The notes: generated from the letters alone by a model not told the origin. Shown: positions 2,881-63,585, counted from the stretch's first letter. The stretch is DNA of 64,000 bases from a virus (IMGVR_UViG_3300021141_000001); one strand, 5' to 3'. Program-made: numbers and translations.

Positions 2881-3333
2881 ATGAACGGAAGAAAACTTAA
2901 AAACTCAGATGCTCTTAAATTTATCTTTGCTGGTAAATCAATTGTTACATTCTTAAACACTAAGACTGGTAATCGTTTTACCTTTAAGACTAAAGCCGCT
3001 AAAGACTCTAATATGTTTTTTGTTAGTGTTTTGAATGGTCCTGAGAACTGGGCTTATATTGGAACTTGTATTGAAGGTAAATTCAGACATGGTAGAAAAT
3101 CTAATATTTCTCAAGATGCTCAGTCTGTAAAAGTATTTGATTTTGTTTTGGCTAAACTTGTGGCTGGTACTTTACCAGAGTTTGTTGAAGTTTGGCACGA
3201 GGGATGCTGTGGTAAATGTGGTAAGAGATTAACAGTTCCTTCTTCTATTGAGAATGGTCTTGGCCCAGAGTGTATTAAAACTCTTACTAAAATGGAAAAG
3301 AGAGATAAATTCTTACAATTAATTTTAGGATAA
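2881..3333 (+). CDS. DUF6011-like zinc-finger protein with C-terminal RxxK-type tag variant
   Basis: CGKCGKRLTVPSSIENGLGPEC signature; ATG at 2881 downstream of the promoter; ends KRDKFLQLILG. Confidence 0.7.
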   Translation: MNGRKLKNSDALKFIFAGKSIVTFLNTKTGNRFTFKTKAAKDSNMFFVSVLNGPENWAYIGTCIEGKFRHGRKSNISQDAQSVKVFDFVLAKLVAGTLPEFVEVWHEGCCGKCGKRLTVPSSIENGLGPECIKTLTKMEKRDKFLQLILG

Positions 3334-3334
3334 T

Positions 3335-3799
3335 ATGTCAATTATATTTTCGTTAATACCATTTATTTTCATAATCTATTATACGATTATGGTTAAGAAT
3401 ACTAAGTATGTTACTATGGATCTAAGAAATGGTGAAATGTGTTACTGTTGTAAGGGTAAGATTGAAATGGATAGAAATGATGTCTTGTACAATATATTAA
3501 ACAATGTAACAAACTATCGTATTTGTAAAGCTTGCCAACGTGATGAAAAATTAGATGAAATTGTAAATCACAGTAAATTATCTAAAATAAACAAATTCAA
3601 GTTTTTTTTAATTTCTGAAAAATATGATAAGTTTGCCAGATACTTACTTTTTTCTTTAGTCATTTTAGTATTTTTAGACATTACGTTAAAAATAGTATTT
3701 GATATTAAGTGGTTCAGTCCTATTTACAATTTATATTTAGTCTGTTATTGGTTATTATTAATCTATCGACACAAACTTATATCCACAAAAAAACCCTAA
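3335..3799 (+). CDS. Membrane protein with CxxC pairs and internal RxxK tag
   Basis: Three hydrophobic segments, CYCC/CKAC, QRDEKLDEIV. Confidence 0.6.
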   Translation: MSIIFSLIPFIFIIYYTIMVKNTKYVTMDLRNGEMCYCCKGKIEMDRNDVLYNILNNVTNYRICKACQRDEKLDEIVNHSKLSKINKFKFFLISEKYDKFARYLLFSLVILVFLDITLKIVFDIKWFSPIYNLYLVCYWLLLIYRHKLISTKKP

Positions 3800-3819
3800 G
3801 ATTTCTCTTAGGGTTTTTT
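3787..3819. terminator. Bidirectional intrinsic terminator
   Basis: AAAAAAACCCTAAGATTTCTCTTAGGGTTTTTT. Confidence 0.8.
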
Positions 3820-3863
3820 CATTAAGGGCCGATCGGATTCGAAACCGTTCAGATTCCACCACC

Positions 3864-4082
3864 TTATTTTTCTAAACAAGGAAACTTATTTCTCTCGATA
3901 TAATTAATTATACCTCGGATAAATAACTCTTTTATTACAGACTCACAAGTAAATGTTTTATCTGAATAAAATTCAATGTTATTTCTAACATTATCCATTC
4001 CAACTTTATATAGGATATCGTCAGAAAAGTTTTTATTTTCCACATTTCTTTCTAATAAAAGAGAGTTAATCATATGTTTCAT
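3864..4082 (-). CDS. Hypothetical protein
   Basis: 72-aa ORF following the Hc1-like gene on the same strand. Confidence 0.45.
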   Translation of the reverse strand: MKHMINSLLLERNVENKNFSDDILYKVGMDNVRNNIEFYSDKTFTCESVIKELFIRGIINYIERNKFPCLEK

Positions 4083-4103
4083 TGGAATGGATTGTTATTT
4101 TTT

Positions 4104-4274
4104 TTACTTTGCTTTACCTTCTTCAGTAGAAGCCGCTCTATAAGCTGTAACTAATTTCTTAATTTCACCTAAAGCTTTTCTTGCTCTTGAGTCTGATACT
4201 TTACTTGTAGCATTGTGATTAGCTTCAAATTCAACCCAAAGTTTTGTCAATTGTTCGAAAATTTCTTGTTTCAT
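4104..4274 (-). CDS. Histone H1-like (Hc1 family) small DNA-binding protein; not in ORF track
   Basis: Manual translation MKQEIFEQLTKLWVEFEANHNATSKVSDSRARKALGEIKKLVTAYRAASTEEGKAK (56 aa); RARKA...KK....R..S matches the Bacteroidota Hc1-like pattern. Confidence 0.75.
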   Translation of the reverse strand: MKQEIFEQLTKLWVEFEANHNATSKVSDSRARKALGEIKKLVTAYRAASTEEGKAK

Positions 4275-4326
4275 TTTATTTCATTTATTTTTGTAATCCC
4301 TTAATATTAAAGGGATTTAGTTTTTA

Positions 4327-5565
4327 TTATCCAAAGATATCATCTGCGTCAGCCGCATCTGTAAATCCGTTTGTATCTTCATCATCTTCATCATCTCCGA
4401 TTACACTATTAAATTGCTTCTCAACATCTTCAATTTCATCCAATGATCTAAATCTGAAATAATCATTTACAATTGGTGCCATTTTTTCAAGAACTTCTTG
4501 AGTAAATACCTCAGATGAGAATAATTGTTTTGTTGTAACTGATTTATTTAGATGATTTATATACCATCTGAGACCACCCGGAATGAAAGTCATTTCTCCT
4601 GTTTTCTTATCAACCTCCATTTTACCTTTGGCGATACCAATTTTTTCAAAATATTCTGGACGACAAAAAGCATCTAAACCAGTATAAGGATTTAATCCAT
4701 TTAGAAAAGAGATATCAAATCTAATTTTCTTAGGTTTGGCTAAACGGTTCTTTTGAGTTTTGAATAAGACTGAAATACCTGATTGACCTAAATCCATATC
4801 ATCTTCTTCACCAGTTTTTAATTTAGATTTAGATAGAAAACCTAAAACTGAAGCTGAATAAACTAGACCCATACCACCCTTACTGATTTCGCGTGGAAAA
4901 AGATCTTGTGTTAAGTATGTGTGATTACAACAAACCATTGGGATATCTAAGTATCCAAGATCAGAACTAATACTTCTAAAAAGAGCATTTAATTGTTTAG
5001 CTCTAGTCATATCTTGCTTCATATCACCTTTTAGTAAGTCTGCTTTTTCTTTGTTAGAAGACATCATACCAATAGAATCTAATACTATTAAAATCTTTGG
5101 AATTTCATATCCTGACATTTTTTGATTTTTTAATTCATCTAGTAATTGTGTTAATGTGATATTTATATCTTCAACTTTATTAGATCTAATTAATCTGAAT
5201 TTTTCCGGTGAGTTATCAATTCCCATTTTAGCTATACCCTCAATATCTATTGAGTTCTCAGTATCAATGTATATCACACTATAATCTTGTTTTCTTTGAG
5301 CTGATTTACATATAGAGTAAGCGATAAATGACTTACCTGCTCCAGATTCTCCTAGAAGTCCAAATATCCTACCTCCTAAAATACCACCACCTACTAATTT
5401 TGCGGAAAGTGCCGCATCTAAAAGATAATTTCCAGTTGATATATAATTTCTTTCCTTTAGTTCCTTCTCGATTAGAATTGGAGTTGATTTTGCTATATTA
5501 TCTAATATAGTTCCTACCTTACTAAATTCAAATCTTTTTACTTCTTTTTTCTCTTGCTTTGCCAT
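4327..5565 (-). CDS. uvsX: UvsX/RecA-like recombinase
   Basis: Walker A GESGAGKS, YIDTE, Walker B IVLDSIG, DMTRAK and GG.GL.Y.AS motifs; acidic tail. Confidence 0.9.
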   Translation of the reverse strand: MAKQEKKEVKRFEFSKVGTILDNIAKSTPILIEKELKERNYISTGNYLLDAALSAKLVGGGILGGRIFGLLGESGAGKSFIAYSICKSAQRKQDYSVIYIDTENSIDIEGIAKMGIDNSPEKFRLIRSNKVEDINITLTQLLDELKNQKMSGYEIPKILIVLDSIGMMSSNKEKADLLKGDMKQDMTRAKQLNALFRSISSDLGYLDIPMVCCNHTYLTQDLFPREISKGGMGLVYSASVLGFLSKSKLKTGEEDDMDLGQSGISVLFKTQKNRLAKPKKIRFDISFLNGLNPYTGLDAFCRPEYFEKIGIAKGKMEVDKKTGEMTFIPGGLRWYINHLNKSVTTKQLFSSEVFTQEVLEKMAPIVNDYFRFRSLDEIEDVEKQFNSVIGDDEDDEDTNGFTDAADADDIFG

Positions 5566-5683
5566 TTTTTTAATTAATTTTTATACTTTATATATTAATA
5601 TTACATTTCCCCCTTTTGTTATTTTTCAATAATTTTTACATTATTATTCTAAAAGGGGGAAATAATTATTTTATATATAACAT

Positions 5684-6754: not shown

Positions 6755-6767
6755 ACTGGTCTTTTTT
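6740..6767. terminator. Bidirectional intrinsic terminator
   Basis: AAAAAGACCATTTAAACTGGTCTTTTTT. Confidence 0.75.
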
Positions 6768-6787
6768 GTTATTAAATTTTTTTATAA

Positions 6788-7411: not shown

Positions 7412-7419
7412 ATTTTTAA

Positions 7420-8809: not shown

Positions 8810-8813
8810 TAGT

Positions 8814-8822
8814 TATATATTA
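8814..8822 (-). promoter_or_regulatory. Putative phage late promoter TAATATATA
   Basis: Motif ends 4 nt before the ATG at 8809; recurs before many structural/CTS genes. Confidence 0.65.
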
Positions 8823-9620: not shown

Positions 9621-9637
9621 TACACTATATATTATTT

Positions 9638-10510: not shown

Positions 10511-10593
10511 TTAGAATAGTTATTTTTATGTTTTATATATTAGTAACATGTAAGTTTATTTGAAATAAATCACGATTTTTAAAAAAGATTTCA

Positions 10594-10601
10594 TATATTT
10601 G
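10594..10601 (+). promoter_or_regulatory. Bacteroidota -7 promoter element
   Basis: TATATTTG 8 nt before the ATG at the head of a long + strand cluster. Confidence 0.65.
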
Positions 10602-10608
10602 TATAATT

Positions 10609-11217
10609 ATGAGACATGAAAAACAAAACATATTCTTTATAAGTGACTTACACGTTGGTCATAAAAACGTCCTCAAGTTTGATGGACGACCTTTTGCTGA
10701 TGTTGATGAGATGCATGTAGAATTAATAAAAAACTGGAACTCAGTAGTAGGTCCAGAAGATACAGTTTATTTCTTAGGTGATTTATCATTTTCTCGTGAT
10801 GAATTGACAAAGTGGTTTATTTATTCACTACAAGGTAAGATTCACTTTATTTTGGGTAACCACGATAAAATGAGTCATATTCAGAAGTTTGGTAGATGGG
10901 AAAGTGTACACGAATCTTATACTGAGATTGGTATTTTAGATCCAGAGTCTCTTGAATCAAGAGGTTCACAAGGTTATCAAAAGATAATCTTATCACACTA
11001 TCCAATTTTAAGTTGGAACAAAGCACATCACGGTTCTTGGCACTTACACGGTCACTGTCACGGTTCATTGATTAAAAGTCAACAAGAGTATTACAAAAGA
11101 AAAGTAATGGATGTTGGTTGTAACGTGATTGATTATACACCTATCTCCTATGAAAAAGTTAAAGGTATAATGGTTAAAAAAAATATATCTGCCGTAGACC
11201 ATCATGGAGAAGATTAA
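10609..11217 (+). CDS. Calcineurin-like metallophosphoesterase
   Basis: SDLHVGH, LGD, GNHD, HYP, HGHCH motifs. Confidence 0.9.
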   Translation: MRHEKQNIFFISDLHVGHKNVLKFDGRPFADVDEMHVELIKNWNSVVGPEDTVYFLGDLSFSRDELTKWFIYSLQGKIHFILGNHDKMSHIQKFGRWESVHESYTEIGILDPESLESRGSQGYQKIILSHYPILSWNKAHHGSWHLHGHCHGSLIKSQQEYYKRKVMDVGCNVIDYTPISYEKVKGIMVKKNISAVDHHGED

Positions 11218-11392
11218 GATGAAAGAATTGGAAACTAAATTAGCTCATTACAAGATGATTGTTAACTCTAATTATGGTGAAAACTCAAGACTAGTAACAG
11301 ATGTTTACTCTGAAGTTTTTAAGTTGAGAGATAAGATTCGTACTGTAAAAATTAGAAAAAGTAAAATAAAAAACTTATTCAATGGAAGATAG
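11204..11392 (+). CDS. Small RxxK-tagged protein carrying a family-B DNA polymerase motif-B-like peptide
   Basis: YKMIVNSNYG (KxxxNSxYG) followed by IRKSKIKNLF. Confidence 0.6.
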   Translation: MEKIKMKELETKLAHYKMIVNSNYGENSRLVTDVYSEVFKLRDKIRTVKIRKSKIKNLFNGR

Positions 11393-11711
11393 ATGGGATT
11401 GTATGAAAGTTGTTTGTATTAAAGAATACAAAACTATTAAAGTTGGTAGTCATTACTCTATCAAAGGTAGAGGTGATTTATCATGTAATGCTGATCCAGA
11501 AGTTGAAGAAAGAAAAGGATATGGTTTCTGTATTGAAGATGATATTTATGGATCCTACTCTGGTAGAAAAGATTGGTGGAATTTATCACATAATGAAAGA
11601 ATTAAATGGTATTATTTTACTGAACAAGAAATGTCAGAATACTTTATCACAGAAGATGAAGATTATAAAGCTTATCGTAGAAACGAAATAATAAAACAAG
11701 TATTAAACTAA
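11382..11711 (+). CDS. Hypothetical protein with C-terminal RxxK-type tag
   Basis: Ends RRNEIIKQVLN. Confidence 0.6.
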   Translation: MEDRWDCMKVVCIKEYKTIKVGSHYSIKGRGDLSCNADPEVEERKGYGFCIEDDIYGSYSGRKDWWNLSHNERIKWYYFTEQEMSEYFITEDEDYKAYRRNEIIKQVLN

Positions 11712-11713
11712 AT

Positions 11714-12583
11714 ATGAAAGACGTAAAAGGATTTTGTAAATTGATGGATATAAGTGTGCCGGATTACGCACATTTTGATTATTATATTAATCAATTCTCA
11801 AAATTAGAAAGATGGAAAAACATCAAAGACTTAATTAAACTTTATGAAGAAGCCGAAGAAAAGTATGGTGAACTTTATGAATATAGATTAAAGAAGTCAA
11901 ATGAAATTATTGATTACTTGAAGAAAACAAGAGCTTACAATGAACTTCAAGATGATAATTTATTGCCTGACCTACCGACAACTAAGAATTTTGAATATTC
12001 AGAAGATAAGAAATATATCTCAATTGATATTAATAAAGCCAATTGGGTAGTTCTTAAAAATTATGACCCTGAATTTGCGCCTGAACTTGGTGATTCTTAT
12101 GATGATTTTATTGCTAAGTTTGATGTTCCTGAAATATTCAATCACTCAAAACAATTGAGACAATATATTTTTGGTAATATCAATCCAAAAAGACAAGGTA
12201 AAGCTCAAAGAGTTATAACTGAAAGATTATTAAATAGATATAAGCATCTAAATTTAGAAATTGCTTGTGTTAAAAACGATGAGGTTATTTATTCTTTTGA
12301 TAGTTTTGACCAAATTAACGAAATACTGACTACTGTTGATAAAAGTTTATTTAAAACTAAACTTTTCACTGTAAAAAGAATAGAAGATTTCCGAATCAAT
12401 ACATATTTATCTGAGACTGGTAAAGGGCTATACAAAGAAATGGTAGGGTGTAATGGTAATCTATTTTTCTTATATCTAAAGAAATATGTTTTGAATGAAA
12501 CACTTGACATAAGAGATTTATATTTCAAAATGGATGGTAATCTTGCTATCTGGAATGTTGAAGGATTAAAAGTAAGTTTATAA
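11714..12583 (+). CDS. Hypothetical protein
   Basis: 289-aa ORF in operon; no recognised motif. Confidence 0.6.
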   Translation: MKDVKGFCKLMDISVPDYAHFDYYINQFSKLERWKNIKDLIKLYEEAEEKYGELYEYRLKKSNEIIDYLKKTRAYNELQDDNLLPDLPTTKNFEYSEDKKYISIDINKANWVVLKNYDPEFAPELGDSYDDFIAKFDVPEIFNHSKQLRQYIFGNINPKRQGKAQRVITERLLNRYKHLNLEIACVKNDEVIYSFDSFDQINEILTTVDKSLFKTKLFTVKRIEDFRINTYLSETGKGLYKEMVGCNGNLFFLYLKKYVLNETLDIRDLYFKMDGNLAIWNVEGLKVSL

Positions 12584-12586
12584 TCT

Positions 12587-12853
12587 ATGTCACAGAGCAG
12601 TACATCCGTTAACATTTACTATGGAAAAGACAAAAAATTAATGGAGTCTTTCCCTATTGAAATTGGAAGAAAAATATCGTCAATAGATGATGCTAGATTT
12701 TTGATAATAAATCATTTAGATAGTTTTTACGTTGATGTTAAATATAAGATTAATGTCTTTTCTACATTTGATGGTGAAACAACTATCAATTTGTTTTTTG
12801 AAGAAGATATTTCTTTGAACAGAGAGCTTTTATTAAGAAAAATATTAGAATAA
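12587..12853 (+). CDS. Hypothetical protein with C-terminal RxxK-type tag variant
   Basis: Ends NRELLLRKILE. Confidence 0.55.
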   Translation: MSQSSTSVNIYYGKDKKLMESFPIEIGRKISSIDDARFLIINHLDSFYVDVKYKINVFSTFDGETTINLFFEEDISLNRELLLRKILE

Positions 12854-13473
12854 TGATAGATATATTTGATAAAAAACCCATTGATTTGACAAAAGTAGTT
12901 TGTCACTCTGGTGGCGCACCTGGTGCTGATACTGTTTGGGAAAACGATGGTGATCCATATGGTGTCCAAACTAGAGCTTACTCTTATAAAACACCTAAGC
13001 ACATATCACCTAACAAGGTTGAAATTTCAGATGATGATTACAAAGAAGGTGTAGTGGAAGTTAACAAGGCTAATAAGTGGCTTAATCGTTACGGAATTCA
13101 TAAGTATATGAATCTCTTGGCTCGCAACTGGGCTCAAGTGAAATACTCTGAACAGATTTTTGCTATTGGAACTATTATTAAACCTGGTGATAAAAGCACT
13201 AGGGGTTACTACAATAAAGGTAAGTATGATATGGTTGATGGTGGTACAGGATATGCTGTGATGATGGGTATTAATAACAATAGAGAAGTTTTTGTTTTTG
13301 ATCAAATTAGAGATAAGTGGTTTAGGTGGTCTTACTCAACACTTCAATTTGTTGAAATGAAAGAAGTTCCTACTATTGATGTTCAAAACTTTGCTGGTAT
13401 TGGAACAAGAGAAATTCAACCAAATGGTGTAAAAGCCATTAAAGATGTATATGAAAAAACATTTAAAAAATAA
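12853..13473 (+). CDS. SLOG/DprA-YspA-like nucleotide-binding protein
   Basis: HSGGAPGAD, LARN and GGTGYAV motifs. Confidence 0.6.
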   Translation: MIDIFDKKPIDLTKVVCHSGGAPGADTVWENDGDPYGVQTRAYSYKTPKHISPNKVEISDDDYKEGVVEVNKANKWLNRYGIHKYMNLLARNWAQVKYSEQIFAIGTIIKPGDKSTRGYYNKGKYDMVDGGTGYAVMMGINNNREVFVFDQIRDKWFRWSYSTLQFVEMKEVPTIDVQNFAGIGTREIQPNGVKAIKDVYEKTFKK

Positions 13474-13482
13474 AAACTTAAA

Positions 13483-13950
13483 ATGAAAACTATCTTAACA
13501 AAAGAAGGAAAAATAAAACTTCAAGAAGAATTAAATTTCCTATTGACAGTTGAAAAAAATCGAGTGATAAATGAGCTATCAGAAGCTCGTGAAAGTGGTA
13601 CATTAGAAGAAAATACACAATACTTAATTGCTAAAGAAGAGTATGAGAAGGTTCAAAAGAAAATTGAAAAGCTACAATCTTTCTTAGCAAATTCAACTGT
13701 TGTTGATGTGGCTGATATTAAAACTGACAAAGTTGCCATTTTTACAACAGTAAAAGTTTTAAATACTACTAATAGTAAAGAAATGATATTTAAGATTGTT
13801 CCAGAGAATGAAATTGATATCAAAGTAAGTAAAATATCAACAAGTAGTCCAATTGGTGCTGGTTTACTTGGAAAATCTCTAAACGAGGTTTGTGAGGTTA
13901 AAACACCAGCTGGTACATTCAGTTTTAAAATTTTAGAAATAAGTATATGA
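13483..13950 (+). CDS. greA: Transcription elongation factor GreA/GreB family
   Basis: LTKEG..KL..EL, AR.SG.L.EN..Y..AK, IS..SPIGAGLLGK, TPAG; first acidic tip residue is T. Confidence 0.9.
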   Translation: MKTILTKEGKIKLQEELNFLLTVEKNRVINELSEARESGTLEENTQYLIAKEEYEKVQKKIEKLQSFLANSTVVDVADIKTDKVAIFTTVKVLNTTNSKEMIFKIVPENEIDIKVSKISTSSPIGAGLLGKSLNEVCEVKTPAGTFSFKILEISI

Positions 13951-14348
13951 GAATAAGTTTTGATTTTGATGGAACATTAGTAGACGAGTTTGGTGGTCAT
14001 CCTTCAAATAGTCAAAAAGACGAAATTCAAGGACTGGCTAAGAAATATCTTAGTGAAGGACATGAAGTAATTATTATTACTAAACGATTTGGACCTGAGA
14101 ACTCTGATAAAGGTATTAAGAATGAACACTTAGAAGTTCAACATTTGGCTAAAAAATTAGGCATTGAAAAGATTTACTTTACTAATCGTGAAATGAAGTT
14201 TTCATATATTATCAATTTAGGTGTTGATAGACATTTTGAAAATGACGACTATGAAGTTCAATTGATTAATCAAGTTTGTAAAGAAAAAGGTCATAACTGT
14301 TTGGTTGTGCCTGTAGAAGATGCTTACTGGAGAGATTTAGTTTATTAA
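13947..14348 (+). CDS. HAD-superfamily phosphatase
   Basis: ISFDFDGTL motif I, IITKR motif II, HFEND motif IV. Confidence 0.75.
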   Translation: MRISFDFDGTLVDEFGGHPSNSQKDEIQGLAKKYLSEGHEVIIITKRFGPENSDKGIKNEHLEVQHLAKKLGIEKIYFTNREMKFSYIINLGVDRHFENDDYEVQLINQVCKEKGHNCLVVPVEDAYWRDLVY

Positions 14349-14359
14349 AGAATATTATT

Positions 14360-14752
14360 ATGATACAATTACCTACTAAAATATATGTTGATAATTCACC
14401 TGTTCATGGGTTGGGTGTATTTGCTAAAGAAAAAATTAACGAAGGTGAGCTAATTGAAGAATGTACAATATTAACTTTACCTATCCAGAAAGGTGAGGAT
14501 TCTAATCTATTTATAGATTACAGATTTAACTTTCCATCTGGTTTGGAATGGGAAGAACAAGTTTTGGTAATGGGTTGTGGTGGTATTTACAATCACTCTA
14601 ACACACCAAATGCTCATTGGTATTCTAATAATGAAAAAAGAACTTTTTGCTTTGTTGCTTTAAGAGATATTGAAGTTGGTGAAGAAATATTTACCTTCTA
14701 TGGTGATGAGTCCTACTGGAATGATGGTAGAACATACATTGATGTTAAATGA
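14360..14752 (+). CDS. SET-domain methyltransferase
   Basis: SPVHGLGVFA, YNHSNTPNA, ALRDIEVGEEIFTFYG. Confidence 0.9.
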   Translation: MIQLPTKIYVDNSPVHGLGVFAKEKINEGELIEECTILTLPIQKGEDSNLFIDYRFNFPSGLEWEEQVLVMGCGGIYNHSNTPNAHWYSNNEKRTFCFVALRDIEVGEEIFTFYGDESYWNDGRTYIDVK

Positions 14753-15141
14753 CAAAAGAAGAATTCATACTATTTATTGAAGATTTAGGATTTACTCAGA
14801 CTTGGATGTCTAAATCAAATGGATATTCTTTAGCAACTGATTCCGCTGATCCAGCGTATAAAGTTATTGGTAATCCTAATCAAAATTTGATGGCTTTTGC
14901 TGACCAATTAAAAATCACATTAGATGATGAAAGAGGAATTGCTCAACTTTCATTATCACAAATGAGTACTCATATGATGGCTGGTAAGAATTTTGGAAAT
15001 TTTCAATTATCAACATTTGGTAATGATGGTGATTTTCAATTAGAGATATTTATGAGTTTTGTAAAAGGTGCTTTTAAGAAACCACCTAATAATATTATTC
15101 AATATATGAGAGATAAAAAAATTAGGGATATATTAAAATAA
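14749..15141 (+). CDS. Hypothetical protein with C-terminal RxxK tag
   Basis: Ends MRDKKIRDILK. Confidence 0.6.
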   Translation: MTKEEFILFIEDLGFTQTWMSKSNGYSLATDSADPAYKVIGNPNQNLMAFADQLKITLDDERGIAQLSLSQMSTHMMAGKNFGNFQLSTFGNDGDFQLEIFMSFVKGAFKKPPNNIIQYMRDKKIRDILK

Positions 15142-16176: not shown

Positions 16177-16608
16177 ATGCCTTTACCGTTTTTTACTAAT
16201 CCAAATAATAGTCCACTATCATCAGCTCTTAATAGTAATATTCCTATTGCTATGAATTATCAACTTGAAGAAAAGATTGAGTTGGATTTGAATAATCCTA
16301 TATTTGTGGCTTATGTTAATACAAGTAATCTAACAAGACAAGCCGCAGAAGAACATCTTTATAGAACTAAAAAAATATTTGATGTTTATAAAAATATCAC
16401 TATTTGGGTAATTGCTTCGAATGAAACTAAAATAGAGTGTGTTTATGATGGTCAATGTAGAACTCGTGATATAGAAATAAGTGACTTAATAAAGGAGATA
16501 AATACAAGGATAGATATAATGGCTAACTCACATTCTTTTGATGATTTCAAAATTAACATCAGAGATTGGAGATTAAGCGAAATAATAAATGGCACTGAGG
16601 AAAAATAA
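16177..16608 (+). CDS. RxxK-tagged protein with a T4-type portal-like peptide
   Basis: IFVAYVNTSNLTRQAAEEHL; ends IRDWRLSEIING. Confidence 0.55.
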   Translation: MPLPFFTNPNNSPLSSALNSNIPIAMNYQLEEKIELDLNNPIFVAYVNTSNLTRQAAEEHLYRTKKIFDVYKNITIWVIASNETKIECVYDGQCRTRDIEISDLIKEINTRIDIMANSHSFDDFKINIRDWRLSEIINGTEEK

Positions 16609-16966
16609 AATAGAAATACTTGATAGAATAATTACTAAGGCTGAACTTGGTGATGATTACTATTGGAGTTATTGGTATGATGATGAGTGGGATGATTATC
16701 ACGATGGTTACTGTGATTGTTATATGTGTATGCCTGTTGATTATGATTATCTACCAGAAGAATTTCAACCTAAAGCAGTAACACATATAAGCAAAAGAGG
16801 TATAAGAATAACACAACATACTCATTCTCCTGGTAAATTAATAGATATGACTTCTATTTACTCTAAAGAAGTTCTTAGACAAAAAAGAATCAACCATATT
16901 TTAGGGATAGAGTCAATAGAACATTCTCGTCCAACTTTAGGAGATATTTTGAATATTAAAAAATAA
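16589..16966 (+). CDS. Hypothetical acidic/aromatic protein with RxxK tag
   Basis: DDYYWSYWYDDEWDDY, CDCYMC, LRQKRINHILG. Confidence 0.6.
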   Translation: MALRKNKIEILDRIITKAELGDDYYWSYWYDDEWDDYHDGYCDCYMCMPVDYDYLPEEFQPKAVTHISKRGIRITQHTHSPGKLIDMTSIYSKEVLRQKRINHILGIESIEHSRPTLGDILNIKK

Positions 16967-19822: not shown

Positions 19823-20104
19823 ATGGAAAAGAAAGATTCAAATAGTAGTGGATTTGCCGAAATATTTTTTAGTAAACTAAAAGAACAATCATTTACAATT
19901 ATTTTAATGGTTGGTATGTTAATATACCAAAACAAAGTATTTAATGAACAAGTCATAAGATATGAAAAACTTGTTAATGAAAAACAACAATACATTGATA
20001 AGTTAATTGAAGACCAAAGACAGAGAGCTATTTTAAGAGAACAGTATTTGTTACAACAAAGAGATTCCTATGTTGATGATTTAATAAAAAATAATCATAA
20101 GTAA
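19823..20104 (+). CDS. Single-TM coiled-coil protein (holin/haemolysin-XhlA-like architecture)
   Basis: One hydrophobic helix FTIILMVGMLIY followed by a coiled coil. Confidence 0.5.
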   Translation: MEKKDSNSSGFAEIFFSKLKEQSFTIILMVGMLIYQNKVFNEQVIRYEKLVNEKQQYIDKLIEDQRQRAILREQYLLQQRDSYVDDLIKNNHK

Positions 20105-23388: not shown

Positions 23389-24318
23389 TTAGATTTTACT
23401 TAGTAATTCTGATTTCTTTTCAGAGAACTCTTCATCTGTTAAGATTCCGGCTGAGTGTAAATCGGCTAATTTTTTGATTAGTTCAATTACTTCATCAGAT
23501 TCTTTTTTCACATTTATTTCTCCTGTTTTCTTATTAAAAATATCCTTTGTTTCAACTGGCTTTCTACTTTCTGGTAAGATTTGAATAATAGTTGAAGAAA
23601 TATAATGTTTCTCAAAGTCCATATCTACCTCAGTGAATTTTTGTTTAGACTTTTCACCTTTTTCAACTCTACCGGTTTCTAAACTATTAGTGAATAGATT
23701 ATTAACTGTAGTTCCACCATATGGTACATTAACATCAGATGTATAACTACAATTTATCATATTATTACTTGAGTAAGTATTTGTAGTTGTTGTTCCTATA
23801 ATACCATTAGATAGATTTGTAGTTACACAAGTACCATTAATAGTAGGACTTGTACCATACCAAACTGTATATGGATTACGCCAAGGATAAGGATTGTATG
23901 GATAATACTTTTCAACAATGATTCTATCAAACTTTCTTTGCCAGTTATCTAAAGTGATAACATCTTCTTTATAGAAAAAAACTTCTAAAAGACCATTGTT
24001 CTGAGTTGCGTCTAATGCTTCTCCAGAATTTTCAATTTCATAAGTTGAAAATTTGAATTTCTTTTTATCGTCAATAAAACAATCGAGATAAACCCTTTGT
24101 CCTGGTTTTACTACTAATCCTGTTTTTGATATTGATTGACCGTTTAATTTAATATCAGCGAGAACTGAAACGGTTAGTGGGTTGAATAATTCAATTTCGA
24201 ATTCTTCTTTATCTTCTAAGAAAACTTTTCCACTTTTAATTGATTTTCTCCCTTTGTCGTTAGGAGTTACGATCCAAGCACTTGGTTTCGTGCTGGTTTG
24301 AGCAATTTGTTTTGCCAT
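23389..24318 (-). CDS. Hypothetical beta-rich protein with C-terminal SHOCT domain
   Basis: Ends ELIKKLADLHSAGILTDEEFSEKKSELLSKI. Confidence 0.7.
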   Translation of the reverse strand: MAKQIAQTSTKPSAWIVTPNDKGRKSIKSGKVFLEDKEEFEIELFNPLTVSVLADIKLNGQSISKTGLVVKPGQRVYLDCFIDDKKKFKFSTYEIENSGEALDATQNNGLLEVFFYKEDVITLDNWQRKFDRIIVEKYYPYNPYPWRNPYTVWYGTSPTINGTCVTTNLSNGIIGTTTTNTYSSNNMINCSYTSDVNVPYGGTTVNNLFTNSLETGRVEKGEKSKQKFTEVDMDFEKHYISSTIIQILPESRKPVETKDIFNKKTGEINVKKESDEVIELIKKLADLHSAGILTDEEFSEKKSELLSKI

Positions 24319-25063: not shown

Positions 25064-26287
25064 GTGAATAAAAACAACTTAATTTTAGAAACATTCCTAC
25101 GGTTGACGAGCCGCACTTATCCACATGGTACTGAAGATGAATTGGTAGAATCAATGATTGAACAAGGTATATTTCCAGTGGATTTACAAAAAGACGTACA
25201 TGGTAACTACTTCTATAAAATAGGAGAGTCACGAACTATATTTGCTTCTCACTTAGATACTGTTAGTAAAGAATCTACCACCGTAACACATACATTTGAT
25301 GATTATATGATTGGTACTGATGGTAAGACTACTTTAGGTGCTGATGATAAAGCAGGTGTGACTGTTATGTTACATTTAATGAAAAATAACATTCCTGGTC
25401 TTTACTACTTCTTCATCGGTGAAGAAGTTGGTTGTATTGGTTCAGGATTGGCATCATCAATGTCTATAAAAGACTTCAAAGGTAAATACGATAGAATTAT
25501 CTCTTTTGATAGAAGAGGCACTGACTCTGTTATTACCTATCAATCTTCTACAAGATGTTGTTCAGATGATTTTGCCGATGCTTTGGCAAGACAATTGAAC
25601 TTATCTGGTATGAAATATAAAAAAGACGAAGGTGGAGTTTATACTGACTCGGCTGAGTTTACTGATATCATCCCAGAGTGTACAAATATATCTGTTGGTT
25701 ATTACAAAGAACATACTGTTAATGAGACTCAAGATATTCAACACCTTGAAGATTTATCAATGGCTTGTTTATTAGTTGATTGGGAGAATCTTCCAACTCA
25801 ACGAGATATGACTAAGAAAGAGTACAAATCTTATGGTTATACTAACTATGGCACTGGTTATAAATCAACTACTTATAAACCCAAATCTAACGATTGGAGA
25901 AGAAGAGATTATGGTTATCACGATGATTGGTATGACCAAAGTCCTCAAGATGATGCGCCTATTGATAATAGTGTTGATGATGTTGATTGGGAAATCGAAT
26001 ATGGTAAATTTAAGAAAAGCCGTAGAAGTAATAAAAAAGGAAAATCTTACATTGATAATGGATCCGGTTTAGAACCATATAGCGATAGAACTAATATTTC
26101 ATATAAAAGTTCTACATTATCAAATGTAGGGAATGATAGAAATTACTATGATAATTTGATTGATAAAATTGTTAAAGATGATTTATCAAAAGAAGATTTA
26201 GAAGTTATTAAAGACCAATATCTTGATATGACTACTGAAAATGATAGAACTTTTTATCAATATCTTTTAGGAAACATTATCGACTAA
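25064..26287 (+). CDS. M28/M20-family zinc peptidase-like protein with low-complexity C-terminal extension
   Basis: SHLDTV, LGADDKAG, GEEVGCIGS, FDR, YYKEHT. Confidence 0.85.
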   Translation: MNKNNLILETFLRLTSRTYPHGTEDELVESMIEQGIFPVDLQKDVHGNYFYKIGESRTIFASHLDTVSKESTTVTHTFDDYMIGTDGKTTLGADDKAGVTVMLHLMKNNIPGLYYFFIGEEVGCIGSGLASSMSIKDFKGKYDRIISFDRRGTDSVITYQSSTRCCSDDFADALARQLNLSGMKYKKDEGGVYTDSAEFTDIIPECTNISVGYYKEHTVNETQDIQHLEDLSMACLLVDWENLPTQRDMTKKEYKSYGYTNYGTGYKSTTYKPKSNDWRRRDYGYHDDWYDQSPQDDAPIDNSVDDVDWEIEYGKFKKSRRSNKKGKSYIDNGSGLEPYSDRTNISYKSSTLSNVGNDRNYYDNLIDKIVKDDLSKEDLEVIKDQYLDMTTENDRTFYQYLLGNIID

Positions 26288-47318: not shown

Positions 47319-47651
47319 ATGAAAACACCAAATTTATTTCCCGTAGCTATGAAAATTGCTGCTCAAACTATTGGACAAGATTTAGTCAGTGTTCAACCAA
47401 TGGCTGGACCAGGTGGAATGACTAAAGAAGAAAGAGAAAGAATTGAAGCCGAGATTAAACAAAAGAATCGTGATGGTAAAATCGATTCATTAATTGAAGG
47501 ATCAGAATATAAAGAAGAAAAATTAGAAGAACATCCTGATTATAAACCAGGTAGTGGTTGTCAATTATTTTATATGGATTATACTTACAATTCTCCAACT
47601 CACAAAAAAACAAGAAGAAGTAAAAAGAAAAAGAAAGATGGGAGTATTTAA
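47319..47651 (+). CDS. Small protein containing a gp23-type major capsid protein fragment interrupted by an RxxK-tag helix
   Basis: LFPVAMKIAAQTIGQDLVSVQPMAGPGG ... NRDGKIDSLI ... GCQLFYMDYTY. Confidence 0.7.
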   Translation: MKTPNLFPVAMKIAAQTIGQDLVSVQPMAGPGGMTKEERERIEAEIKQKNRDGKIDSLIEGSEYKEEKLEEHPDYKPGSGCQLFYMDYTYNSPTHKKTRRSKKKKKDGSI

Positions 47652-48901: not shown

Positions 48902-50650
48902 ATGCTTATTAGTGAATTAGGAATTAGAGGATTCAAAAGTTATGGTAATAACGAACAAGTCTTAAAATTAAATACGGAAAAAGGAGAATTGATTCTTCTT
49001 GTTGGAAATAACGGAGCAGGTAAATCATCTTTGTTAGATTCCTTCGATTACACACTTTATGGTAAAGTTAGAGGTCGTAAAAAGAAATGGGCCACTTTAT
49101 CCACACTCCCAAACAGAATTAACGGTGAACTACTTAATAGAATTAAATTTAATTCTTTAGGTACTGACGTTGAAATAAAACGAGGTATATCACCTGGTGT
49201 GTTAGAACTTACAGAAAACGGTGTTGTCAATGAAAGAGCCGGTAAAGGTAATGTTGATGAAAAGATTGAAAAGTATATCGGTATGGATATTGAAACTTTC
49301 AAATCATTTATCTCAATGTCTATTAATGATTTCAAAAACTTTATCTCTTTATCAAATGAAGAAAAACAACTTCTTTTAGATAAGTTGTTCAACTTAGAAG
49401 TTATCAATATCTTAAATGGTATCTTAAAAGATATCGCTAAGAATAATAAAGTCAGAGCCGCTTCTTTTGATGGTGAAATTAGAACTTTAGATGACTCAAT
49501 TTCATCTATTCAAAAGTCTATTGATAAAGCTATTGAAAGGCAAAAAGAAGAAGCTAGACTAGCTTTAGAAAGAGAGAAAGAAGATATTCAAGCCGAGATT
49601 GATAGAATCACAGGTGAGATGAATTCTAGAAAAGATGATTATAAATCTTTGAAAGAAAAGATGGATAAAATCAAAGAAAAGGATTCAGAATTATCTGATG
49701 AGATGGACAAAGAAAAAAGACAACTTATCAATTGTCAAAATGATATTAAGAATGTTCAAAGAGAATTAGACTTATATGATTCTGGTAAATGTCCTACTTG
49801 TAAAACAGATTTTGATTCGGTTCACTTTGCTAATTTAAGAACGGCTTTAGAAGAAAAGAAATTAGGTTTTGAAAATATCAAATCTGAAATTGAAGCTAAT
49901 GTTACTAAGATAAGAGAAAGACAAGTTAAGTTAAAAGGTTTATCTGAAACAACTACAACAACTTTTAATGATTTAAGTTATCTATTGAAAAACTATAAAT
50001 CAGAGATTGATAAATTAGTTCAAAAGAAAGCTTCTCAAACTGTTCCGGTTAATACTACTCCTTCTATTAATATTCAAGAGTTTCAAAATACAATTGAAGA
50101 ACTTGAAGAAAAGAAAGTAGTTAGTTCTGATAACATCACAGTTTGTAAAGAGAAAGACCTTTATTATAAAGAGTTGAATCGTATCTTTGGTGAAGATGGT
50201 GTTAAGAAGTCTATAATCTCTGGCATTATTAAACCAATCAATCACTTTATTGCTGAGAATATTAAAAAGATGAGTTTGCCATTTGAAGTAAGATTAGATG
50301 AAACTTTTACAGCTGAGATTAAACAATTAGGTTCTCAAATTGAACACGATTCTTTATCAACTGGTGAAACTAAAAAAGTTAATATTAGTATCTTAATTGC
50401 TTACTTGAAGTTAATTAGAACTAAGCGTCATATCAATATACTCTTCTTGGATGAGGTCTTCTCTTCTATTGATATCGAAGGTATAGATTCTATTTTGGCT
50501 CTCTTAAAATCGTTCGCAAACGATTATAACATCAATATCTTTGTTGTCCATCATGCTATTTTGAACCAAGAGATGTTTGATAGAATACTGAAGATTAATA
50601 AAGAAGTGTTTTCTTCGATAGAAGAGGTTGATCTGAGTTATGGAAGTTGA
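48902..50650 (+). CDS. gp46/SbcC/Rad50-like recombination ATPase
   Basis: FKSYGN, Walker A GNNGAGKS, zinc hook CPTC, signature LSTGE, Walker B LFLDE, coiled coils. Confidence 0.92.
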   Translation: MLISELGIRGFKSYGNNEQVLKLNTEKGELILLVGNNGAGKSSLLDSFDYTLYGKVRGRKKKWATLSTLPNRINGELLNRIKFNSLGTDVEIKRGISPGVLELTENGVVNERAGKGNVDEKIEKYIGMDIETFKSFISMSINDFKNFISLSNEEKQLLLDKLFNLEVINILNGILKDIAKNNKVRAASFDGEIRTLDDSISSIQKSIDKAIERQKEEARLALEREKEDIQAEIDRITGEMNSRKDDYKSLKEKMDKIKEKDSELSDEMDKEKRQLINCQNDIKNVQRELDLYDSGKCPTCKTDFDSVHFANLRTALEEKKLGFENIKSEIEANVTKIRERQVKLKGLSETTTTTFNDLSYLLKNYKSEIDKLVQKKASQTVPVNTTPSINIQEFQNTIEELEEKKVVSSDNITVCKEKDLYYKELNRIFGEDGVKKSIISGIIKPINHFIAENIKKMSLPFEVRLDETFTAEIKQLGSQIEHDSLSTGETKKVNISILIAYLKLIRTKRHINILFLDEVFSSIDIEGIDSILALLKSFANDYNINIFVVHHAILNQEMFDRILKINKEVFSSIEEVDLSYGS

Positions 50651-50930
50651 TAATTTGTTAGAATTATATCTTAACGCTAAGAAAGATAAGAAAGAAGCTA
50701 TTAGTCTTCAAAAATATGAGAAAGCGGCTATGGCTAGAGATACAGAACGCAAACATTCAGTTGATTTGTATGAGTTATTGAGTGGTGATAAAGTTGAAGC
50801 TTTTGATTATAATAAATTTGATAAACTTATTGATGATTACTGTATGAGTAAGTATGAAGTAAGTATTTATGATACACACTCATTAAAACAAATTATTAGA
50901 CAGAAAAGACTAAAAGATTTAGGAATATAA
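50640..50930 (+). CDS. UVR-domain (ClpC M-domain-like) small protein with C-terminal RxxK tag
   Basis: KKEAISLQKYEKAAMARDTE; ends IRQKRLKDLGI. Confidence 0.65.
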   Translation: MEVDNLLELYLNAKKDKKEAISLQKYEKAAMARDTERKHSVDLYELLSGDKVEAFDYNKFDKLIDDYCMSKYEVSIYDTHSLKQIIRQKRLKDLGI

Positions 50931-52585: not shown

Positions 52586-52777
52586 ATGTTGATCGTAGAG
52601 GTTGAAGGAAAACTAACAATTGAAAAAGCTCTTAAAATTCTTAAAAGAAAATGGGACAAAACTAAAGCTATGAAAGAGCTTAGAGGAAGAAAAGAATTTA
52701 CTAAAAAGTCTGTAAAAAGAAGAGCTGAAGTAACAAGAGCCGCTTATATTCAGAAGAAATACAGAAGTAATGATTAA
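52586..52777 (+). CDS. rpsU: Ribosomal protein bS21
   Basis: MLIV.V.....IEKALK.LKRK......KELR.RKEFTK.SVKRR. Confidence 0.88.
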   Translation: MLIVEVEGKLTIEKALKILKRKWDKTKAMKELRGRKEFTKKSVKRRAEVTRAAYIQKKYRSND

Positions 52778-53069
52778 GAAGTTACTTAGTTTATTTCCCA
52801 ATCAAAATAATAAAACTTATGATTTAGGAAAATTACAAAAGTCTGGATTTATATCATCTTTACCTGATATGTCTGGTTGTCCTAATTGTAAAAGTAAAAA
52901 TATATCTTGGAAGTTCTTTATACCAACAGATGGTTCTAAACCAACTATTCCATCACAAAGTGTTTGTAATGATTGTGGATATAAAGATGAAAAAGGTCAG
53001 TTTGAAATGACAAATAAATCGTTACTTAGAGAGAAAAAAATTAATCAAATATTAGATGAGTTTCAATAA
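52770..53069 (+). CDS. Zinc-ribbon protein with C-terminal RxxK tag
   Basis: CPNC...CNDC; LREKKINQIL. Confidence 0.6.
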   Translation: MIKKLLSLFPNQNNKTYDLGKLQKSGFISSLPDMSGCPNCKSKNISWKFFIPTDGSKPTIPSQSVCNDCGYKDEKGQFEMTNKSLLREKKINQILDEFQ

Positions 53070-57269: not shown

Positions 57270-57318
57270 TTTTTATTTTATTTTATTTTTATATATTTAT
57301 TTTAATCATTTATGTATA

Positions 57319-61629: not shown

Positions 61630-61675
61630 CTATTACCAAAAGGATTTTATGTATATATTATTTATTAAGACTTTC

Positions 61676-61706
61676 TTTGTAATTAAACTTTATTTAATTA
61701 ACTTTG
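61676..61706 (+). promoter_or_regulatory. Bacteroidota-type primary sigma promoter
   Basis: TTTG 61676-61679, 19-nt spacer, TAACTTTG 61699-61706. Confidence 0.7.
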
Positions 61707-61715
61707 TAAAATAGT

Positions 61716-62450
61716 ATGAATAAGAAAAAAGTATTGATTTTTACTGGAGCAGGAGTTTCAGCTGAAAGTGGCGTTGCTACTTTTAGAACTGGTGATGATG
61801 GGCTTTGGTATAATCATAAAGTAGAAGATGTTGCCACACCTAGTGGGTGGCGTAGAGATAGAGAAAAAGTTCTTAATTTCTACAATATGCGTCGTGCTCA
61901 AATGAAAGATGTTGAGCCAAATTTGGCGCATAAAATAATTGCTGAATTAGAAAATGATTATGATGTTACTGTTGTAACTCAAAATGTTGATGATTTACAC
62001 GAAAGAGCAGGCTCAACTAATATTATTCATCTACATGGTGAGTTAACAAAAGCTAGAGGCTGTATGTATGATCATAAAACATCACCATTAGACACAGTTG
62101 TTGATGTGGGATATAATCCAATTAATATTGGAGATAAATGTCCAACAACTGGCTCTCAATTAAGACCTCATATTGTTTGGTTTGGTGAAGATTTAGATCC
62201 TGATTTTGTTGATATGGCTACTAAAGCGGCTAAAGAATGTGATGTATGTATTGTTGTTGGAACTTCAATGAAAGTTTCACCTGCTAATACAATTCCATTT
62301 TTGACTAGAGAAACTACTAAGATTTACTATGTAGATTTATCAGACCTTGATTTCTATGTACCAGAATACAGAAATGACTTATTTACTCATTACCAAGAAT
62401 TGGCATCAACTGGTATGGAAAAAGTTAAAAACGATTTAAAAAATATTTAA
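61716..62450 (+). CDS. cobB: Sir2-family NAD-dependent deacylase
   Basis: TGAGVSAESG..TFR, PN.AH, TQNVDDLHERAG, LHG, RPHIVWFGE, VGTS..V.PA. Confidence 0.92.
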   Translation: MNKKKVLIFTGAGVSAESGVATFRTGDDGLWYNHKVEDVATPSGWRRDREKVLNFYNMRRAQMKDVEPNLAHKIIAELENDYDVTVVTQNVDDLHERAGSTNIIHLHGELTKARGCMYDHKTSPLDTVVDVGYNPINIGDKCPTTGSQLRPHIVWFGEDLDPDFVDMATKAAKECDVCIVVGTSMKVSPANTIPFLTRETTKIYYVDLSDLDFYVPEYRNDLFTHYQELASTGMEKVKNDLKNI

Positions 62451-62451
62451 T

Positions 62452-62682
62452 ATGAAAGAAGAATATTACAAAGACATATTTGGTGGTAAAAAATATGGCG
62501 ACTATATGGTTTATGGTTTAGATAAATCTAAAGAATCTACATATAGTGATTACACTGATTTACTTGACCAAATGAACGCAACATCCTTCACTGAAGAATC
62601 TGAAGAACAAAAAGCTATTCGTGAAGCAAAAGAAAAGGCTGAGAAAAGAAATAATAAGATTGACCAACTTTTAGGAGAATAA
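62452..62682 (+). CDS. Small protein with C-terminal RxxK tag
   Basis: Ends KRNNKIDQLLGE. Confidence 0.6.
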   Translation: MKEEYYKDIFGGKKYGDYMVYGLDKSKESTYSDYTDLLDQMNATSFTEESEEQKAIREAKEKAEKRNNKIDQLLGE

Positions 62683-62683
62683 T

Positions 62684-63247
62684 ATGTCACAAATATCAAT
62701 TGTTGATTGGATTACGGCTTTATTAATAGTCGTGCCTTTATTTGCTTTACTTATATCAATTCCAAGTTTTATCTCTATGTATAAACTTGGATTCAAAGCT
62801 TATGTAGAACAATTGATACTTTTGAAAACAATGTTGAAAAAGATATCATCTGGATATAAAATTACTCAAAATCAAGTTTATAATTACAGCGGTGTTAGTT
62901 ATAATGGACCAAAATCAGTAACACAAGTTGAAACTAATCATTTCTTTCCAATAGTTATTAATAAAGATAATCTCTTAGTTCTTAATAAGAAAGAAGGTCC
63001 ATTTAATACTTTACATATTCAGTATTGTAAACATGAAAATGATAACTGGGATAATAATATGGTTGAGATAAAAACCAGCAATTGTTTATTTACTCAAATT
63101 CTAAATGACAGATTTCAAAAAAAAGTTGATAATCTTATGAAAGAGTCTGTTCAACTTGATGGAGTTGAAAATCTAAATGAACTATTAAATAGTGAAATAA
63201 CTTCTATTAAAAGAGAAGATAAACTTAATGCTTTATTAAATGATTAA
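62684..63247 (+). CDS. Membrane-anchored protein with C-terminal RxxK tag
   Basis: N-terminal TM helix; ends KREDKLNALLND. Confidence 0.6.
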   Translation: MSQISIVDWITALLIVVPLFALLISIPSFISMYKLGFKAYVEQLILLKTMLKKISSGYKITQNQVYNYSGVSYNGPKSVTQVETNHFFPIVINKDNLLVLNKKEGPFNTLHIQYCKHENDNWDNNMVEIKTSNCLFTQILNDRFQKKVDNLMKESVQLDGVENLNELLNSEITSIKREDKLNALLND

Positions 63248-63404
63248 AAGAGACATTGTAATAGTTGACCATATCAGTATGATAAGTGCTACTACGGTAG
63301 ACCCATCCATATTGGAAAAACTTAATATTCGTGTTAAGAATATTCGTAAGTATAGAGGTCGTATTGAAAAACGAAAAGAAAAAATAAAAAGAATTTATGA
63401 ATAA
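63240..63404 (+). CDS. 54-aa RxxK-tagged protein with SF4-helicase Walker-B-like peptide; not in ORF track
   Basis: MIKRDIVIVDHISMISATTVDPSILEKLNIRVKNIRKYRGRIEKRKEKIKRIYE; overlaps both neighbours by 8 nt. Confidence 0.6.
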   Translation: MIKRDIVIVDHISMISATTVDPSILEKLNIRVKNIRKYRGRIEKRKEKIKRIYE

Positions 63405-63585
63405 AGAAACTCTTGATATATTTGGTCAATATCTAAATGGTAATAAACAAATTATGATGTTGAAGGCTAGGCAAACTGGTAAGTCAAGTGCCACCGCTTC
63501 TTTAATGGCTTGGAAACATCTTCATAGTAAATATGAAAGAGCAAGAACGAGAAAAGAAACCATAAAACGGCTTTTTAATATATAA
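63397..63585 (+). CDS. 62-aa RxxK-tagged protein with terminase-large-subunit Walker-A-like peptide
   Basis: IMMLKARQTGKSS; ends TRKETIKRLFNI. Confidence 0.65.
   Translation: MNKETLDIFGQYLNGNKQIMMLKARQTGKSSATASLMAWKHLHSKYERARTRKETIKRLFNI

Follow-up and report, generated by a model that had tools for sequence, protein, structure and literature searches.

A C-terminal peptide tag shared by unrelated proteins of a huge-phage lineage, and its candidate readers

Why should many small and mutually unrelated proteins of one virus end in the same short peptide, and what could read it? The question is raised by IMGVR_UViG_3300021141_000001, of which a stretch of 64,000 nucleotides (hereafter the window) was analysed, and in which a sequence-only reading had listed 17 proteins sharing a peptide of the form R-x-x-K-[IL]-x-x-[IL]-[LF], proposed to serve as a docking, localisation, oligomerisation or degradation signal. 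All 17 peptides are present in the genes named, the coordinates given for them being gene starts and not motif positions. Concerning their position, described as mostly at or near the C-terminus, the claim stands: 12 of them end 1-6 residues before the stop codon (genes starting at 2827/2881, 11204, 11382, 12587, 14749, 16177, 50640, 52770, 62452, 62684, 63240 and 63397); of the remaining five, the peptide of gene 16589 lies 20 residues from the end, and those of genes 3335, 17235, 47319 and 47638 are internal or N-terminal. Our analysis confirmed that the shared tag is real and larger in extent than first reported, and it is probable that it serves as an address read by one common partner.

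Enrichment, anatomy and conservation of the tag

The window has a G+C content of 29% and contributes 74 genes and 20,441 amino acids to the enrichment counts; it encodes a UvsX-like recombinase, an SbcC/gp46-like protein, PhoH, Sir2, tail-fibre-like proteins and many small orphans. Among GenBank entries the window is closest to two uncultured huge phages, LR756502 (642 kb) and LR745206 (635 kb), and is more distantly related to LR756504 (636 kb), LR756501 (735 kb) and the Prevotella Lak phages. A further relative, IMGVR_UViG_3300032236_002285 (476,236 bp, 97% complete according to CheckV, hereafter G001), encodes proteins 44-92% identical to those of the window. G001, LR756504 and LR756501 were used whole, LR756502 for the first 620 of its 642 kb, and Lak-A1 for 400 kb, translated with TAG as glutamine. 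Genes were called as the longest non-overlapping open reading frames of at least 40 amino acids, covering 92-96% of each genome. We searched for the strict motif given above and for a looser one, R-x3-[ILF]-x2-[ILV]-[ILFVY]; since both patterns were derived from the window itself, the cleaner test is the one made out of sample, in the other genomes.

In the window the loose motif has 24 matches, 11 of which lie within 8 residues of the C-terminus (that is, in the last 17 residues) against 0.28 expected (Poisson, 2e-14), and all five strict matches are C-terminal against 0.005 expected. Out of sample, strict C-terminal matches number 43 in G001 (0.06 expected), 50 in LR756502 (0.10 expected) and 26 in LR756504 (0.13 expected), and there are none in LR756501 (0.09 expected) or Lak-A1 (0.04 expected). 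The frequency of the motif at C-termini is therefore far above expectation, in the window and out of sample. A scan of gapped triplets in the last 12 residues, blind to the motif, ranked R..K...I, R..K....L, RD.K and R..K[IL] at the top in the three tag-bearing genomes and thereby recovered R..K[IL]..[IL]L. By the loose motif, 90 of 667 genes are tagged in G001 (13.5%), 112 of 948 in LR756502 (11.8%) and 106 of 968 in LR756504 (11.0%); in LR756501 it is found on 10 of 1067 (0.9%), where 4.4 are expected by chance. With a second subtype, R-x-x-K-L-x-x-L-G-I-COOH, which is found on 28 further genes, the G001 total rises to 118 of 667 (17.7%); in LR756502 this subtype likewise accounts for 28 more. 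The two relatives of about 640 kb have 109-140 tagged genes each, and the first type alone occurs on a quarter of the G001 proteins of 60-150 amino acids.

Internal copies of the loose motif are near chance, with a slight excess in G001 (89 against 71) and LR756502 (137 against 107); the strict motif has moderately more internal copies than expected (9 for an expected 1.4, 10 for an expected 2.1). Since the pattern is kept in the G001 orthologues (37-77% identical) of the non-C-terminal instances in genes 3335, 16589, 17235 and 47319, some of these copies are probably genuine and are perhaps former C-termini. The copy in gene 3335-3799 may be such a relic; whether the one in gene 16589-16966 is a working tag is uncertain.

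A logo was built from the 90 G001 tags with the arginine as position 0; the selecting expression itself fixed I/L at position 4 and I/L/V at position 7. Position -4 is K, L, I or V, position 1 is D or E in 62 of 90, position 3 is K in 60, position 4 is I or L, position 5 is N, K or D, position 7 is I in 64 tags, position 8 is L in 59, and position 9 is K, N, D, G or the end of the protein. The consensus, [K/L/I/V]-x3-R-[D/E]-x-K-[I/L]-[N/K/D]-x-[I/L]-[L/F], comprises 10-13 residues, is basic, and is followed by 0-8 free residues; in two thirds of the tags the end lies 0-2 residues before the stop. In its physico-chemistry the tag is hydrophilic (mean hydrophobicity -0.31, net charge +1.6) and has a low mean hydrophobic moment, 0.25. 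We considered that the conserved residues might be confined to one face of a helix and discarded the idea, polar positions 1, 3, 5, 6 and 9 being constrained as well: the whole decapeptide matters. For a tagged protein of the zinc-ribbon family DUF6011, encoded at 2881-3333 in the window, AlphaFold2 (alignment of 38 rows) gave a confident body at pLDDT 85-95 and a terminal helix, residues 137-149, at pLDDT 53-63; from this model the tag is probably an appended, flexible helix.

The same family indicates how the peptide was acquired. The protein has 516 homologues, and among the 120 best of them KRD[KN]FLx[LMI]IL, followed by a single free residue, closes almost every sequence, about three having single substitutions; the orthologues in LR756502 and LR745206 have diverged but valid tags. 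In Sinorhizobium phage phiM9 and Caulobacter phage CcrColossus the homologous proteins end directly behind the zinc ribbon and have no tag: the family gained it only in the phage lineage studied here. Together with the low confidence of the terminal helix beside a confident body, these shorter homologues bear out the view of the motif as a short module appended at the C-terminus.

That the carriers are mutually unrelated, as had been claimed, was also found to be correct: with the tag removed, the 90 G001 carriers fall into 89 clusters in BLAST and phmmer comparisons, and the same procedure gives 108 clusters from 112 carriers in LR756502 and 86 from 106 in LR756504. Paralogy of the carriers is ruled out by these separate clusters. 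In searches of Pfam and PHROGs with about 33 tagged proteins, almost all were without a match.

Conservation at the level of the protein was equally upheld. The information of the motif sits in codon positions 1 and 2, and third positions are uninformative. Across the 90 G001 tags arginine is encoded by AGA 66 times, CGT 14, CGA 6, AGG 3 and CGC once, which is the usage of the genome, and the codons for D, K and the I of position 4 are likewise at genome usage. At positions 7-8 codons ending in A are mildly over-used (ATA 39 against 22 expected, TTA 42 against 32), as would be expected from overlap with the start of the next gene. Among the window orthologues found in three IMG/VR contigs every tag is kept, often identically, with bodies 44-88% identical, and the tag is kept in 29 of 35 G001-LR756502 orthologue pairs of tagged proteins. 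The last 14 residues are better conserved than the body in 25 of the 35 tagged pairs, compared with 71 of 173 untagged small-protein pairs, and across 28 homologues of gene 62452-62682 the last 25 residues are far better conserved than the rest. The bodies of tagged proteins change rapidly, with 39% identity compared with 54% in proteins that lack the tag: an orthologue is detectable for only about 30% of the tagged proteins, yet each genome has more than 100 tagged genes.

Transcription units and lineages of the tagged genes

Two families of 8-mers are enriched in the intergenic regions of G001, and every gene was assigned to the nearest such motif upstream on its strand run. The first family, TA(TC/TA)TTTG, has the form TAnnTTTG, the -7 element of Bacteroidetes promoters, and stands before arrays of small genes; the second, AATATATA(C), precedes most of the large structural-type genes. 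In TAnnTTTG units 71 of 207 genes are tagged, against 11 of 227 in AATATATA units (Fisher p = 7e-16), and when only proteins of 50-200 amino acids are counted the fractions are 64/134 and 10/107 (p = 3e-11). In the window, units headed by three TAnnTTTG motifs hold 9 of the 12 tagged genes (Table 1). The two motifs are probably early and late promoters, respectively. Because their genes lie in tightly packed units headed by a Bacteroidota-like promoter motif, the carriers are probably early, and we infer that the tag marks early proteins transcribed by the host RNA polymerase.

An N-terminal leader, M-[KR]-x-[ILFV]-[KR]-x-[FY], which resembles the T4 capsid-targeting sequence, is present on 38 G001 proteins (for instance 42281, 43658 and 83944), 30 of them in AATATATA units. 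None of the 38 is tagged, in agreement with the earlier remark that no carrier has a capsid-type leader. With respect to the downstream gene, tagged genes in G001 have a median gap of -4 nt and 48 of 90 overlap it; when unit type (TAnnTTTG) and size are matched, they overlap their neighbour no more often than untagged genes do (p = 0.28). Twelve of the 90 are the last of their run.

Concerning the other lineages, LR756504 has a variant, E-[YH]-R-K-x-[IK]-I-x-[DE]-L-[LI], which forms the exact C-terminal end in 55 of 106 tagged proteins (e.g. record 221-5305). LR756501 (735 kb) is without the arginine tag; in its place DPYGEExW, with 0-4 residues behind it, closes 39 proteins (e.g. records 500330-503452 and 552409-555773) and is a second, unrelated C-terminal tag in the same clade. 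In Lak-A1 no tag was found in 454 genes of 400 kb, nor any other strong C-terminal motif. The tag is thus lineage-specific, with a form that differs from one lineage to another, as expected if it co-evolved with its reader. It is selected at the amino-acid level, C-terminal, lineage-specific and tied to one class of transcription unit.

Phage G is reported to encode ClpP and ClpX (PMC12484599). In the literature that we searched on huge phages and Clp proteases we found no description of such a tag, and this particular C-terminal code appears to be new. That sister lineages have differing tags suggests that tagging of this kind organises the proteomes of huge phages in general, a principle so far undescribed.

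The phage Clp protease and other candidate readers

As a protein-level address peptide at the C-terminus, the tag has been added to roughly one sixth of the proteins of the phage. The leading candidate for its reader, which we put forward tentatively, is the phage's own ClpC-ClpP protease, for which the tag would be a recognition or degradation signal. The reader would consist of a ClpC-type unfoldase without N-domain, with a UVR coiled-coil M-domain and a ClpP-docking VGF loop, and of a ClpP whose catalytic triad is intact; early proteins bearing the tag would be given a short, programmed lifetime, and separate huge-phage lineages would have separate C-terminal codes.

The genes that accompany the tag are consistent with this proposal. 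Thirty-five G001 proteins have homologues in both other tag-bearing genomes and none in LR756501; among the annotated ones are NrdB, nucleases, NUDIX, GrpE, rhomboid, a small UVR-motif protein and ClpP. The Ser/His/Asp triad motifs of ClpP (AASMG, MIHQ, RD) align with solved ClpP structures, including 1y7o. A ClpC-type ATPase with the order D1, UVR M-domain, D2, a (G)VGF loop and no Clp_N domain is encoded in G001, LR756502 and LR756504, all three of which also have ClpP; the LR756501 ATPase has Clp_N, no M-domain and no VGF loop, and its genome is without ClpP. Among the genomes examined only LR756504 has an extra ClpX-like ATPase (385 aa, 37587-38744), and there the tags mostly end exactly in -LL/-LI. 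The tagged window protein of gene 50640-50930 contains, at residues 14-43, a 30-residue segment that shares 47% identity with the UVR coil of the phage ClpC; the protein may regulate ClpC or act as its adaptor. In the resting state the M-domains of ClpC are reported to associate pairwise, and the N-domain to stabilise that state (PMC12583610); for this reason the phage ClpC, lacking that domain, might be constitutively active. A complex prediction with ClpC residues 1-410 (alignment of 10 rows) and a 76-aa tagged window protein scored 0.00 and is neutral on binding.

Among the closest known parallels are Clp degrons (ssrA, the MuA-type C-motif 2) and adaptor tails, which like the tag are short peptides at or near the C-terminus of unrelated proteins and which are read by one machine; the phage possesses a candidate for such a machine, a ClpC-like unfoldase and a ClpP with VGF loop and triad, respectively. 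The sequence of the tag, however, is unrelated to ssrA, it is encoded in the gene and not added after translation, its last residues are free, and it is probably helical; the phage unfoldase, too, is without the N-domain to which adaptors normally bind.

Several points weigh against the phage Clp protease as reader. Lak-A1 has two ClpP genes and a Clp ATPase, yet none of its 454 genes in 400 kb is tagged, and therefore Clp genes are not sufficient for the tag. LR756501 has its DPYGEExW tag without any ClpP, so that this tag must be read by something else or by the unfoldase alone. The co-occurrence of tag and Clp comes from one clade and so amounts, in effect, to one event in evolution. Almost all positions of the tag are constrained and the trailing residues are free, a pattern that contains no specific pointer to the pore loops of an unfoldase. 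A ClpP co-transcribed with the tagged genes would mean continuous turnover and not a late switch. Finally, binding and degradation by the Clp protease are putative. A more elaborate proposal, rather unlikely in our view, is that the N-domain-less ClpC-ClpP reads a phage-specific code on about half of the small early proteins and works as a timer that clears host-takeover and anti-defence proteins, and that sister lineages use other codes (E-[YH]-R-K-x-I-I-x-D-L-L-COOH with the extra ClpX-like ATPase, or DPYGEExW).

It is also possible, and here too we would speak only tentatively, that the tag is a docking helix which tethers early proteins to another hub without degradation, with a sliding clamp of phage or host origin, RNA polymerase and the phage-encoded DnaK/GrpE chaperone system as candidates. 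The layout of the tag is that of clamp-binding tails such as the T4 gp43 tail (...EEKASLDFLFG) and PIP boxes: it lies at the extreme C-terminus, has the spacing polar-x-x-h-x-x-h-h (h, hydrophobic; in the logo the residues at 4 and 7 were preset by the selecting expression) and has basic flanks; in the AlphaFold2 model it is an exposed terminal helix. Hub candidates are at hand, DnaK being encoded in all five genomes and GrpE beside tagged genes of G001; with the ClpC-like ATPase and ClpP they form a phage proteostasis set. On the other hand, no clamp gene was found by Pfam (PF09116, PF02916) or by BLAST with T4 gp45; of the polymerase-like genes found, neither the gp43-like one (84859-86385) nor the neighbouring 555-aa gene ends in the tag. 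Unlike clamp tails, the tag has aliphatic and not aromatic hydrophobic residues and an invariant arginine four residues upstream, and its more than 100 carriers, an unusually large number of clients for a phage clamp, are orphans and not replication enzymes. DnaK fails to explain the lineage specificity because it is present in tag-less genomes too. That the tags bind each other, oligomerising each protein or gathering them all, as proposed for SHOCT, is improbable. The tag, a short helix at the C-terminus in which I4, I7 and L8 form a hydrophobic a/d/e-like stripe next to charged residues, would suit such a module, but only about 1.5 heptads are hydrophobic, the invariant arginine lies inside, and more than 100 different proteins with one and the same sticky end would be driven into promiscuous hetero-association. 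SHOCT itself (PF09851), a short helical C-terminal domain proposed to oligomerise, occurs like the tag on many unrelated proteins, in its case diverse bacterial ones, and has a similar ...K-K-x-x-L-L ending, and it is present in the window, at the end of an untagged 309-aa protein (23389-24318, minus strand; E = 4e-7); the tag nevertheless lacks the G-x-I-T-x-E-E-F half of SHOCT, and none of about 33 tagged proteins matched the profile at E<=0.01 or E<=0.001.

The remaining explanations fare worse. Terminal targeting peptides are known for capsid-like shells (the T4 capsid-targeting sequence, the cargo-loading peptides of encapsulins), and the phage is related to T4 and has a gp21-type protease within a 720-aa reading frame; a packaging signal that loads the prohead or virion, as a C-terminal counterpart of these peptides, is nonetheless quite improbable. 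The T4 sequence, which like the tag is a short terminal address common to unrelated proteins of a T4-type phage, is N-terminal, cleaved by gp21 and found on late proteins, whereas the tag is C-terminal, strongly under-represented in the AATATATA units with their large structural genes, absent from the separate and mostly late set with the T4-like leader, and not preceded by any conserved L/I-x-E cleavage site in the 90 G001 tags. We consider it very improbable that the signal acts on nucleic acids or translation at gene ends, as a downstream initiation region or as a nascent peptide modulating termination or re-initiation. The frequent overlaps with the next gene and the excess of A-ending codons at positions 7-8 would fit it, but the information lies in the first two codon positions, the arginine codons AGA, CGT, CGA and AGG appear in their genomic proportions, overlaps are no commoner than in matched genes, the distance to the stop varies over 0-8 codons, and some tagged genes close their run, gene 50640 being followed by a terminator-like hairpin; on the codon evidence and the run-ending genes, a DNA-level signal or translational coupling was rejected as the main cause. 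Least credible of all is an amphipathic helix of the MinD or FtsA type that targets the membrane: position and length are alike, and some instances, KRDKFLQLILG for example, resemble the tail of MinD, but the low moment and hydrophobicity, with three hydrophobic residues beside a conserved Arg and Asp/Glu, do not suit it, and some carriers already have a transmembrane segment. The tag was accordingly rejected as SHOCT on the profile, as a membrane-targeting helix on physico-chemistry, and as a capsid-targeting sequence on terminus, unit class and cleavage site.

Further candidate readers were dropped. Against a MoxR/vWA machine, PF07726 had no match in G001 or LR756502 and there was only one weak VWA_2 match; for an M20/M28-like peptidase (25064-26287) and an ankyrin protein (86-2041) nothing spoke beyond the domain names.

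Whatever its reader, a tag on 11-18% of the genes of a widespread clade, with hundreds of metagenomic relatives and predicted to infect Bacteroidota, places over 100 orphans of each genome in a single functional class. Most genes of huge phages are orphans without any clue to function, and a ten-residue peptide is a concrete biochemical handle on them. If the reader is the phage Clp protease, this would be a virus-encoded degron system timing the early programme; if it is another hub, a central control point of the infection would have been identified.

Tag instances in the window and neighbouring genes

Table 1. Coordinates of tags, tag-like copies, promoter-like motifs and Clp genes (window positions unless G001 is named; residues after the tag are given in brackets)
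Feature	Sequence	Position	Strand	Gene and remarks
Tag	KRDKFLQLIL (+G)	3298..3327	+	2881-3333, DUF6011 zinc-ribbon protein
Tag	IRKSKIKNLF (+NGR)	11351..11380	+	11204-11392; RKEKIKRIF in orthologues at 50-78% identity
Tag	RRNEIIKQVL (+N)	11676..11705	+	11382-11711; orthologue has LRDEKLKQILN
Tag	NRELLLRKIL (+E)	12818..12847	+	12587-12853
Tag	MRDKKIRDIL (+K)	15106..15135	+	14749-15141; orthologues 64-73% identical, tag identical in L004, RDKKIKSIL (one substitution) in L005
Tag	IRDWRLSEII (+NGTEEK)	16558..16587	+	16177-16608; found in LR756502 too
Tag-like	LRQKRINHIL	16874..16903	+	16589-16966; identical in G001 orthologue
Tag, second subtype	IRQKRLKDLGI-COOH	50895..50924	+	50640-50930; terminator-like hairpin after gene
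Tag	LREKKINQIL (+DEFQ)	53025..53054	+	52770-53069, zinc-ribbon-like
Tag	KRNNKIDQLL (+GE)	62644..62673	+	62452-62682
Tag	KREDKLNALL (+ND)	63209..63238	+	62684-63247, N-terminal transmembrane segment
Tag	KRKEKIKRIY (+E)	63369..63398	+	63240-63404
Tag	TRKETIKRLF (+NI)	63547..63576	+	63397-63585; RKETIKRLFNI identical in orthologues 56-84% identical overall
Internal copy	QRDEKLDEIV	3536..3565	+	3335-3799, 77 residues from end; ERNQKLDDLV in 44%-identical G001 orthologue
Internal copy	NRDGKIDSLI	47466..47495	+	47319-47651, fragment resembling major capsid protein gp23; pattern kept in 37%-identical G001 orthologue
Promoter-like motif	TAnnTTTG	10594..10601	+	heads unit 10609-15141 with four tagged genes
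Promoter-like motif	TAnnTTTG	48856		before SbcC and gene 50640
Promoter-like motif	TAnnTTTG	61699		before Sir2 and four tagged genes
Promoter-like motif	AATATATA	28331, 35800, 39900, 45228, 57297, 61660		
ClpP		G001 440754-441512 (L149:1402-2157)	-	TAnnTTTG unit, mid-array of tagged genes; E=2e-55
ClpC-like ATPase		G001 284643-286775 (L156:244-2373)		D1, UVR M-domain, D2, GVGF loop; no Clp_N

One more tag may be present in the window: gene 19823-20104 ends in ...QQRDSYVDDLIKNNHK, with Val at position 4, and was counted neither by the sequence-only reading nor by our pattern. In G001 the ClpP gene adjoins a gene for the RNase P protein component (440376-440675; PF00825, E = 3e-13), and an Acb1-like 2H phosphoesterase, a possible anti-CBASS protein, is encoded at 305731-306276. 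The UvsX-like recombinase of the window (4327-5565, minus strand) has a long acidic C-terminal tail, ...DDEDDEDTNGFTDAADADDIFG, similar to the acidic C-terminal tips of SSB and gp32.

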